Source: Escherichia coli (lineage in GTDB: Bacteria > Pseudomonadota > Gammaproteobacteria > Enterobacterales > Enterobacteriaceae). From it: DNA of 17,115 nucleotides. The stretch lies in assembly GCF_003334765.1 (NCBI RefSeq), contig NZ_QOWT01000052.1, one strand, 5' to 3'. Below, piece by piece: positions 3,054 to 5,780 of this stretch. The position numbers were made by a program, and so were the translations under genes. Every line of letters starts with the position of its first letter. Position 1 is the first letter of the stretch. The notes beneath the pieces are model-generated. The model saw only the letters and a list, made by a program, of their open reading frames with translations. It did no database searches and was not told the origin of the DNA.

Positions 3054-3096
3054 CAGAATCCCCCCTATAAGGATGGCAAATGTCATATTCCATTTT

Positions 3097-3468
3097 CTAC
3101 TCTAGCAACTCCATCTGCTGTTCATGTGTTTGTTCCATCTTTTCCTGGTACCTCACATATCGTCTGATAATTTCTTCGTTCCCCCCTACCGTATCAACAA
3201 AGTAACCCCTCGACCAAAAATGGTTTCCCCATAACTTCTTCCCGATATGCAGGAATCGATTGTAGAGTCTGATTGCACTGCGGTCTTTCAGCTGCCCCAT
3301 CAGAGTAGATATTGAGATTTTTGGTAGCACTATTACGACAAGATGCATATGATCTGGCTGTACATTTAACTCCAGAGCCTCGCAATCTTTTATTCCGCAA
3401 AGAATAAAGATGGTTCTGTACAGCTCCTTGCCCAATTTATCCCTCAGAATCCTAAAGCGGTACTTTAG
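3097..3468 (-). CDS. tnpA: IS200/IS605-family Y1 (HUH) transposase TnpA; N-terminus apparently disrupted (in-frame stop upstream of the conserved CKYHIV, no ATG)
   Basis: Minus-strand translation CKYHIVWTLKYR...DHMHLVV (HxH)...FWSRGYFVDTVG (catalytic Y region) matches IS200 TnpA. The ORF caller starts at an internal Met (3435). Confidence 0.7.
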   Translation of the reverse strand, partial: LKYRFRILRDKLGKELYRTIFILCGIKDCEALELNVQPDHMHLVVIVLPKISISTLMGQLKDRSAIRLYNRFLHIGKKLWGNHFWSRGYFVDTVGGNEEIIRRYVRYQEKMEQTHEQQMELLE

Positions 3469-3917
3469 CGTCCAGACTATGTGATATTTGCAACACTAAT
3501 ATACATGTGATGAACTTCTGTAAAGCCCTATATCAGTTTGTCTCCTTTTACTTGTGGTGTGTAAGCAGATATATTCAGACATGGACATTCTTCAGGCTAT
3601 AACCTTACAGGAACAATCACCACCTCCACAAGAGGTGAGGTTTTATTTTACCTGTCACTCCCAAAAGAGTATATTAATACATGAATAATGTCTTAGCATT
3701 CTATTTGGCATTCATATTAATTTAACTTCTGCACCCCTAATATTTCATTACTCTCTTTTGAATGTATGCCTGATACAGTATATGATGTTAAAAACTTAAT
3801 TGACGTTGTGTAAATAGACCCGTTTTGGTTACATACATTTTTTGAGATTCCGGAAAGAATTACCCTGTCCCAAAATCAATACAGTGCTAAATCAGAGATC
3901 TTTGTCTTTCCTGAGAC

Positions 3918-4295
3918 TTCAAAAAAATTCAGCCGGCGTCACGTCATTTAATTATGAATGCGTTCTCTCATGATTATATTTCCTGCGCCAGTAATCGAGT
4001 TTGTCTTGTGCATCTTCCAGTTTTCAGCGCCAGTGATATAAGACGGTAATTCGCCATTTGGATTGTCCGCATCCCCATAACGGTCAAACATCGTGGCGTT
4101 GACACAGTGACAGGAACCAGTGAATGTTCAGACACTCATCCCGCAGACTGCCGTTAAACGATTCAATAAACGGTTTATCTGCCAGCTTTCCGGGGGGCGA
4201 GAAGTCCATGTTCACACCGTGTTCATACGCCCCTTTATCCAGACTTTTGAGATAAACTCGCTGCCGTTGTCACCGCCACGATGTTTGACCGTTAT
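3918..4295 (-). pseudogene. IS3-family (IS2-group-like) orfB C-terminal remnant with frameshift and premature stop
   Basis: Minus-strand frames give GGDNGSEFISK, PGKLADKPFIESFNGSLRDECLNIHWFLSLEDAQDKLDYWRRKYNHERTHS, then stop, then TPAEFF: a DDE/integrase core C-terminus. Confidence 0.55.
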
Positions 4296-4327
4296 TTGCC
4301 ATTTTCATGCCCGCTAAGATACTTTCG

Positions 4328-5115
4328 TTACTGATGCTGTCTGCTTTCCACCATTTCATCATCACTGATTGGCGTTGTGTTTTTGGTCAGCACTCCAGCT
4401 TTACGTTTCTCTTTTAACCGGTAACTCTCTCCTTTGATATTCAGCGTGGTTGAGTGATGTAGCAACCGATCCAGTATCGCTGTTGCCAGCACGTGATCTC
4501 CGAACATTTCTCCCCAGTCTGCGAACCCTTTGTTTGACGTCAGTATGATGCTCGCTTTTTCATATCGACGGTTCAGTAGCCGGAAGAACAGGCTGGCTTC
4601 CTCTCTGTTCATCGGCAGATAGCCTATTTCATCCAGGATCAACACCCGGGCATAACTCAGTTGCTGTAGCTAACACTCCAGCCGATTTTCCTGTTTCGCT
4701 TTCATCAGTGTCGCGATCAGTCAGTCCAGTGGCATAAACAGTACCCGATGTCCCGCATCCACCGCTTTCATGCCAGGAGCTATGGCCAGATGAGTTTTTC
4801 CGACACCAGGAGGTCCCAGCAGGATCACGTTTTCGCCGCCAGACCAGCCAGTTCCCGGACAACCTTACGGTCGATGCCCGGCTGGAAGGTAAAATCGAAC
4901 TGCTCCAGCGTTTTGACCCACGGCAGACGAGCCTGCTTCAGCCGGGACTCCATACCGCGCTGATGCCTGTCGTTCCATTCCTGCTGTAGCGCCATGCACA
5001 GGAACTCCCGGTAGTTCAACTCTTTTTTAACTGCCTGTTCCAGCAGGCTTTCAACGTGATAACTCAGATGCTCCATTTTCAGGCGACTCAGCAGGACTTC
5101 CAGCTCATGCATCAC
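4328..5115 (-). pseudogene. istB: IS21-family istB (ATP-binding helper) with frameshifts and an in-frame stop
   Basis: N-terminal segment, Walker A segment ([15 protein letters not shown]) and C-terminal segment ([20 protein letters not shown]...) lie in three different frames; a TAG interrupts ..[25 protein letters not shown]. Confidence 0.75.
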
Positions 5116-5780
5116 AACAGCTCCTCATAGGTACTCAGTGGTCGATGTTCCACCTGACTGACCTGCTGCCAGAGCGGGGCGTGATGCTCCGGCACTGTCT
5201 GCCAGCCAGACGATGCCGGACAGAGGCGATGTGAGGCCACCAGTTTCTCATTACTGTAGATCCGCAACTCGTCATCCAGCGATATTCGTATCGATACTGG
5301 CTGACCACACAGCGCTTCGGGAACGCTGTAACGATTACCACCAACCTCGATATAGCTGTCCCAGGACACATGGCGGATGTCGAAGTAACTGGTATCGAAG
5401 TCCGTATCCGGTAACGGCTGCAGATGTTCCTGCTCCAGCGCGAAGCGCTGTTCCGGCGTTTCTTTGAACTGGCGAAGCTCCCGTTTGTCAGCCACATCGG
5501 CTATCCATTGCTCCAGTAGTTGATTAACATGAGTGAAGCTGTCGAACCTGCGGTACCGGACGAAGAAGTTCTCCTTGAGGTATTTCACCATCCGCTCAAC
5601 CTTACCTTTTGTTCTGGCCCTGCGTGGACGGCATGCCCGTGGCAGGAAGTTATAGTGGTCGGCCAGCAACAGGAATCCGGAGTTGAACACGACTTTCCCG
5701 TTGTTATTCTTCAGCACCGCAGCCTTCTGGTTATCAACCAGCACCGTTTTCACACAACCACCGAATTTGATCCCTGAAAA
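5112..5780 (-). pseudogene. istA: IS21-family istA, 5'-truncated (C-terminal part only)
   Basis: Translation ..GIKFGGCVKTVLVDNQKAAVLKNNNGKVVFN... continues in frame upstream of the called start to a stop near 5780. Confidence 0.7.

Follow-up and report, generated by a model that had tools for sequence, protein, structure and literature searches.

Insertion sequence debris of three families at the SIR2-RepFIB junction of an Escherichia coli IncF plasmid

How did damaged insertion sequences (IS) of unrelated families come to lie side by side between a cargo gene and a plasmid replicon, and can any of them still move? This question is raised by a 17,115-nucleotide stretch of Escherichia coli DNA (contig NZ_QOWT01000052.1 of assembly GCF_003334765.1), which was analysed as a whole and is called the window here. 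The open reading frame (ORF) at 7500-8477 encodes a RepFIB initiator of the RepB family, and the window belongs to an E. coli IncF plasmid. Between this replicon and a SIR2 gene, which represents low-GC cargo, IS-derived DNA of the IS200/IS605, IS3 and IS21 families fills almost all of positions 3022-5770 (2.75 kb), and no piece of it is intact. The reading favoured here, with a probability of about 0.9, is that this segment is non-functional debris, left at the junction of SIR2 cargo and RepFIB by no fewer than five separate insertions of elements from three families. Judged from their sequences, none of the pieces should be able to transpose on its own, and they would now serve only as homology for recombination. 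The cluster represents ordinary plasmid biology of an already known kind, and nothing in it points to a new type of element or to a new function.

Damaged elements of three families

The families were assigned with NCBIfam profiles, namely NF033573 for the IS200 TnpA, NF038214 and NF006616 for IstB, NF033546 for IstA and NF033516 for the IS3 fragment. On a record that is 100% identical to positions 2900-6100 of the window, the NCBI Prokaryotic Genome Annotation Pipeline (PGAP) lists four minus-strand genes: a tnpA of the IS200/IS605 family and three pseudogenes, namely an 'integrase core domain', an istB and a 5'-partial istA. These are the same four genes, on the same strand, that had been described in a first-pass annotation made from the letters alone. 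Together, the profiles and PGAP bear out its proposal of three damaged IS families on the minus strand between the SIR2 gene and the RepFIB backbone. It had located the cluster correctly at 3060-5780, whereas the true extent is 3022-5770 (Table 1), and it lacked two of the pieces, an 83-bp IS21 mini-element on the plus strand and a 51-bp IS3-like scrap. Searches against Rfam, covering the whole window at the gathering threshold and 2900-6100 at E<=1, returned nothing relevant. Positions 2900-6100 are 100% identical to NZ_OZ547039.1 (isolate AF58, plasmid 2) and NZ_JBQGLE010000005.1 and share 99.4-99.8% identity with about ten further E. coli plasmids, including pECC-1470_100. The structure of the cluster is present, at 99.5-100% identity, in nine complete E. 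coli plasmids (nine in RefSeq, nine in PLSDB).

Table 1. Features of the IS cluster, in window coordinates (LE, left end; RE, right end; nt, nucleotide; aa, amino acid).
Feature	Position	Strand	Basis
IS200/IS605-family element, 616 bp	3022-3637	-	Collinear with intact copies of 613-616 bp from LE hairpin to RE tip
RE subterminal hairpin, 14-bp perfect stem	3025-3053		Inverted repeat; DNA fold -17.1 kcal/mol, z = -5.3
tnpA pseudogene (144 codons in intact copies)	3097-3531	-	Codon-by-codon alignment with intact WP_038989254.1
LE subterminal hairpin (CACCTC-TTGTG-GAGGTG)	3621-3637		Kept in all aligned copies; fold alone weak, z = -1.8
AT-rich spacer, 171 bp, 29% GC	3638-3808		No match outside this plasmid lineage (E. 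coli genomes, PLSDB); no Rfam match
51-bp scrap like an IS3-family right end, ending ...GGGTCTATTTACA	3809-3859	-	82.8-88% identity to right ends of annotated IS3-family elements
IS3-family orfB 3' part (from ...DNGSEF) and right end	3860-4267	-	86-88% nt, 88.5% aa to Klebsiella IS3-family transposase
IS21-type ends-only mini-element, 83 bp, within orfB	4022-4104	+	Ends match full 2130-bp copy
Main IS21-type remnant	4268-5770	-	97.3% nt to positions 621-2130 of a full copy with 4-bp target duplication
istB pseudogene	4328-5112	-	Difference list against intact copy and three-frame translation; PGAP 'frameshifted; internal stop'
istA 3' part, codons 174-390, otherwise open	5112-5770	-	98.2% aa to intact IstA residues 174-390

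The largest piece is the main IS21-type remnant, whose identity to the full copy begins at about IS position 616. The left ~615-620 bp, with the left inverted repeat (IRL) and istA codons 1-173, are gone, in agreement with an earlier description of istA as 5'-truncated. The remaining 217 codons are open, and NF033546 covers them over its profile positions 180-294. The istB gene is damaged as first described, yet it occupies two reading frames rather than three and carries two nonsense codons rather than one. A single 13-bp deletion between 4837 and 4836 causes the frameshift, and the stops arise from AGA to TGA at 4721-4723 and CAG to TAG at 4670-4672. At the other end, the tip of the right inverted repeat (IRR) is intact at 4268 and abuts IS3 orfB sequence exactly. 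The prototype IS21 from R68.45 measures 2.13 kb, encodes IstA of 390 aa and IstB of 265 aa and has multi-repeat terminal inverted repeats and a 4-bp duplication (family features in PMC10122671). Membership of the family is supported by an istA (DDE) overlapping an istB (AAA+), both recognised by the profiles and by nucleotide identity. It is also supported by TGT...ACA repeats and a 4-bp duplication, of which the main copy retains the IRR and the mini-element both tips and the duplicated CAGT. A likeness to IS100 had been suggested alongside IS21; the IstA of IS100 from pPCP1 is only 35.7% identical and nucleotide matches to it are patchy. Since IstA is 98.2% identical to the IS21 type and 36% to IS100, the remnant can be assigned to IS21 proper. 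Twelve nt past its truncated end, the 9 nt at 5782-5790 on the plus strand reproduce the IS21 IRL tip (TGTCAGCGC) exactly, in the opposite orientation. This 9-mer is unique in the window, has a chance expectation estimated here at ~0.13, and may be a scrap of another IS21 copy or a coincidence.

At the opposite edge of the cluster, the IS200/IS605-family element starts 2 nt past the SIR2 stop codon (3017-3019), and its RE hairpin, 6 nt past that codon, may act as a terminator behind the SIR2 gene. DNA searches identified intact relatives at 93-94% nucleotide identity on E. coli chromosomes and on a Salmonella IncHI1 plasmid, all 613-616 bp long with a TnpA of 144 aa. The ORF at 3097-3435 scores 89.6 bits against NF033573 (cutoff 55), matching profile positions 32-125 only. 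The RE tip at 3022 reads ...CTTTTTAC. At the other end, ~16 nt of the LE tip (ATTGTTATCCCTAAAC), which three independent intact copies have in common, are not recognisable in the window beyond 3637, the position at which every match outside this plasmid lineage ends. The tnpA gene had been reported to lack its start, and no usable start is indeed present. The cause is point mutation and not truncation, as the element is full length save for the LE tip: the start has changed from ATG to ATA at 3529, and codon 12 (3496-3498) from TGG to TAG through the base at 3497. Beyond these two lesions, tnpA differs from its intact relative by 13 amino-acid replacements and 7 silent changes, which is consistent with relaxed selection. 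In total, 131 of 145 aligned positions are identical, counting the stop codon, and the HUH motif and the C-terminal region are still encoded. A Y1 HUH transposase and hairpins at both ends without terminal inverted repeats place the element in the IS200/IS605 family, and the complete tnpA and complete LE of an intact member are lacking. The corresponding PGAP gene (3097-3480, minus strand, 127 aa, RefSeq WP_162753152.1, 'IS200/IS605 family transposase') is called from an ATA downstream of the nonsense codon, within the conserved CKYHIVW strand. This apparently intact coding sequence is an artefact, and annotation as a pseudogene is due. In addition, three independent intact copies of this type (loci L005, L006 and L007, at ~1160-1200) each lie directly 3' of a GC-rich hairpin with a trailing T-run, the hairpin differing from copy to copy, an arrangement which suggests that the element might target terminator-like hairpins.

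IS3-family material and the IS21 mini-element within it

Between these two elements lies the IS3-family material, in which the 3' part of an orfB can be recognised. Three-frame translation allows its peptide to be rebuilt as ...DNGSEFISKV / LDKGAYEHGVNMDFSPPGKLADKPFIESFNGSLRDECLNIHWFLSL / EDAQDKLDYWRRKYNHERTHS, followed by a stop, LNDVTPAEFF and a further stop. With an IS3-family transposase found on Klebsiella plasmids, the peptide shares 88.5% identity and the underlying DNA 86-88%. Everything upstream of DNGSEF has been lost, and the ~90 last codons that survive are interrupted by the mini-element, over 84 bp in the alignment with the Klebsiella DNA. The match to NF033516 is partial (27.7 bits, fragment only), PGAP names an 'integrase core domain', and the DDE/rve transposase encoded by orfB assigns the piece to the IS3 family. 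The motif FSRPGKP.DN.FIESFNG..R.ECLN is one that we take to be typical of the IS407 group. An initial reading of an IS2-like orfB with a frameshift and a stop was right about the damage, which consists of a 1-nt deletion at 4248/4249, TCA to TAA at 3952-3954 and a premature TGA at 3919-3921. It was wrong about IS2, which is ruled out by BLASTP against the K-12 IS2 protein InsD1 (best E=0.033 over 19 aa).

Whether 3809-4267 derives from one IS3-family element or from two depends on the DNA downstream of orfB. The likeness to the Klebsiella element continues up to its TG...CA tip, a boundary inferred by eye from the sequence, and stops there abruptly (at 3860 the window reads GGGTAA, against GGGTCA in Klebsiella). 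Beyond it, the 51 bp of 3859-3809 match the outermost right end of another IS3-family element instead (E=7e-7 genome-wide), one with an unrelated orfB C-terminus. The scrap is therefore probably the right end of a second IS3-family element, into which the orfB-bearing element would have inserted. Alternatively, a single IS3-family element whose 3' non-coding tail is long could account for the whole segment. In favour of this, alignment to the second IS3 type runs weakly on into 3860-3869, and the left halves that could have displayed a target duplication are gone. Set against the abrupt end at the Klebsiella tip and the separate match that follows it, the single-element reading can be given perhaps one chance in four.

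Within orfB, on the plus strand, lies the mini-element, in which 47-49 bp from the left extremity of an IS21-type element (IRL side) are linked through 6 bp to the rightmost 28 bp (IRR side). The two ends, over 47 and 28 bp, are 100% identical to those of the full 2130-bp copy. It is flanked by a perfect 4-bp direct duplication, CAGT, at 4018-4021 and 4105-4108, just as the full reference copy is flanked by a duplication of ATGC, and the Klebsiella orfB has no such insertion. The likeliest origin is the insertion of a full element followed by internal deletion. It is also conceivable, although unlikely, that the mini-element was inserted as a miniature unit moved in trans by IstA and IstB of resident IS21 copies and is not the relic of a deletion in situ; if so, it would represent a rare derivative of IS21 resembling a miniature inverted-repeat transposable element (MITE). 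Multiple copies at unrelated sites would be expected of such a unit, and across 72,556 plasmids and 5,426 E. coli genomes the mini-element was found at one locus only, in this plasmid lineage. A near-full match in CP070400.1 was ruled out as a second copy: that record (locus L013, 499-3804) has two IS21-type elements in tandem, the IRR of one abutting the IRL of the other, a layout presumably like the reactive (IS21)2 arrangement known for IS21. Plasmid pO157, in which an IS21 left end lies beside an IS3-family pseudogene, was rejected as an intermediate, its IS3 fragment being unrelated at the nucleotide level.

The nesting proposed in the first-pass annotation thus applies to the IS21 and IS3 material, with the CAGT-flanked mini-element inside orfB, a second IS21 copy abutting orfB and one IS3 right end followed by a second IS3-like scrap. 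It does not extend to the IS200-type element, which is separated from the IS3-family scraps by 171 bp of AT-rich DNA.

Residual mobility and assembly of the cluster

If part of the cluster were still mobile, the candidates would be a shortened active TnpA and the 83-bp mini-element as a MITE-like unit moved by resident IstA and IstB. The tnpA frame is open for 112-127 codons and keeps the HUH motif and the C-terminal Tyr region, the mini-element has a perfect 4-bp duplication and ends identical to those of active copies, and active IS21-type copies are common in E. coli. However, the tnpA start is lost and codon 12 is a stop, so that initiation at ATA or at an internal TTG would cost the protein all or part of its conserved first strand, CKYHIVW, and the normal LE tip of the element is missing. 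For the mini-element, the IRL tip carries a G to T change at position 2, and its right end of 28 bp is probably too short for the two repeats normally carried by each IS21 end (PMC10122671). Additionally, its confinement to one locus speaks against transposition, and continuing mobility of any piece is accordingly improbable. Least credible of all is that the frameshifts and stops are sequencing or assembly artefacts of this record: the neighbouring SIR2 gene does have record-specific indels restricted to homopolymer runs, but identity over the IS cluster (2900-6100) is 99.4-100% among nine complete plasmids that were assembled independently and come from different countries and hosts, no indels separate the IS21 remnant from its counterparts in pECC-1470 (compared lesion by lesion) and p14EC033d, and none of the 13-bp deletion, the stop-creating substitutions, the 615-bp truncation and the 83-bp insertion is a homopolymer error.

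Comparison with related plasmids indicates how the debris was assembled. The same dead IS21 remnant, its lesions included, occurs elsewhere with no gaps and 5 mismatches in 1532 bp, including the same truncated junction to the RepFIB-side flank, in other contexts on its left. In p14EC033d-type plasmids its IRR tip abuts a truncated vapC, whereas in pRHBSTW-00670_2 and pB16EC0481-1 it is cut further by IS3 at window position 4502 and by IS26 at 4558, respectively. As the remnant and its RepFIB flank recur with varied left junctions, they can be viewed as the oldest shared block, next to which the DNA on the left has been repeatedly replaced. These vapC', IS3 and IS26 junctions support the earlier view of successive insertions and deletions at a recombination hotspot.

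From these observations a history can be proposed in which the order of events and the recombinational joining are inferred. An IS3-family element would have been present beside AT-rich DNA downstream of the SIR2 gene, and a second, Klebsiella-related IS3-family element would have inserted 51 bp from its right tip. Two IS21-type copies in opposite orientations would then have inserted into the orfB of the second element, 163 bp apart. The interior of one of these would have been deleted, so that 83 bp of ends remain and the 4-bp duplication is intact. The other would correspond to the dead remnant found beside RepFIB in many IncF plasmids, with its 5' deletion, 13-bp deletion and two istB nonsense codons. 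As this remnant cannot transpose, the exact junction between IRR and orfB is best accounted for if another IS21 copy had inserted independently into orfB elsewhere, after which homologous recombination between IS21 copies probably joined the SIR2/IS3 block to the remnant. Finally, the IS200/IS605-type element would have inserted separately, 2 nt past the SIR2 stop codon, and decayed by point mutation.

Some observations weigh against this account. The crossover would need to fall close to the IRR, unless the incoming copy had the polymorphisms of the remnant; near the IRR, the sole difference between the window and p14EC033d is at 4273. The distinction of two IS3 elements hangs on a match of 51-64 bp at 83-88% identity, and PGAP lists tnpA as an intact 127-aa protein. 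Furthermore, relatives with an empty site were found for neither the IS200-type nor the IS3-family insertions, since the SIR2 3' end and the 171-bp spacer occur in this lineage only, and the order of these two insertions is therefore not fixed.

The practical consequences of the cluster are slight and mostly a matter of records. It calls for correction of a RefSeq entry in which tnpA is an intact protein starting from ATA. The exact junctions at 3022, 3809, 3860, 4022/4104, 4268 and 5770 are possible lineage markers for the small set of IncF/RepFIB plasmids with this SIR2 gene. More generally, the locus represents a cargo site beside RepFIB that has been repeatedly remodelled around one dead IS21 remnant.

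Plasmid surroundings and likeness to known systems

In pECC-1470 the neighbouring SIR2-family gene (575-3019) forms one uninterrupted ORF of 814 aa. The window copy is broken by a -1 change at ~2010 (A7 run) and a +1 change at 2255 (C8 run), and another record of the same lineage has homopolymer indels at a different set of sites (1018, 2255 and 2890); these are probably long-read sequencing errors and not biology. On the other side of RepFIB, at ~10640-15540, low-GC cargo encodes a NACHT-domain protein, a DUF3800 protein and a pentapeptide-repeat protein and includes ISNCY fragments; this could be another defence-type island. Just upstream of it, at ~9.86-10.36 kb, are parD and a relE/parE gene with a frameshift. 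Perfect inverted copies of 77 bp occupy the two extremes of the window (1-77 and 17039-17115), and a matching record shows them to be the termini of two IS3 copies in inverted orientation, between which the entire 17-kb segment lies, RepFIB included.

Each component has a close counterpart among known systems. The IS200-type element shares with the IS200 group of the IS200/IS605 family a length of ~616 bp, a single tnpA, hairpins at LE and RE and the lack of terminal inverted repeats, and it differs in its lost start, its nonsense codon, its 13 replacements and the absent ~16 nt of the LE tip. The IS3-family material has the orfB C-terminal core of the Klebsiella transposase and tips of the ...CA type, with only ~90 codons, a frameshift, two stops and an IS21 insertion as differences, and does not belong to the IS2 subgroup. 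As for IS21, the remnant resembles the 2130-bp copies that PGAP labels 'IS21-like element IS21 family' (97.3% nucleotide identity), with the ATGA overlap of istA and istB and TGTCA... termini, and the 4-bp duplication recurs around the full reference copy and the mini-element. It departs from them in the ~615 bp missing at the left and in the 13-bp deletion and two stops of istB, while the second copy is reduced to 83 bp. Finally, the region as a whole corresponds to the IS-bounded cargo regions beside RepFIB in IncF plasmids, where the same IS21 remnant and flank are accompanied by vapBC and an ATP-dependent nuclease, by IS3 or by IS26. The lineage of the window differs in carrying SIR2 cargo and IS200 and IS3 debris, and in having 50 bp (5800-5849) where pECC-1470 and p14EC033d hold 1.55 kb of AT-rich, apparently non-coding DNA.

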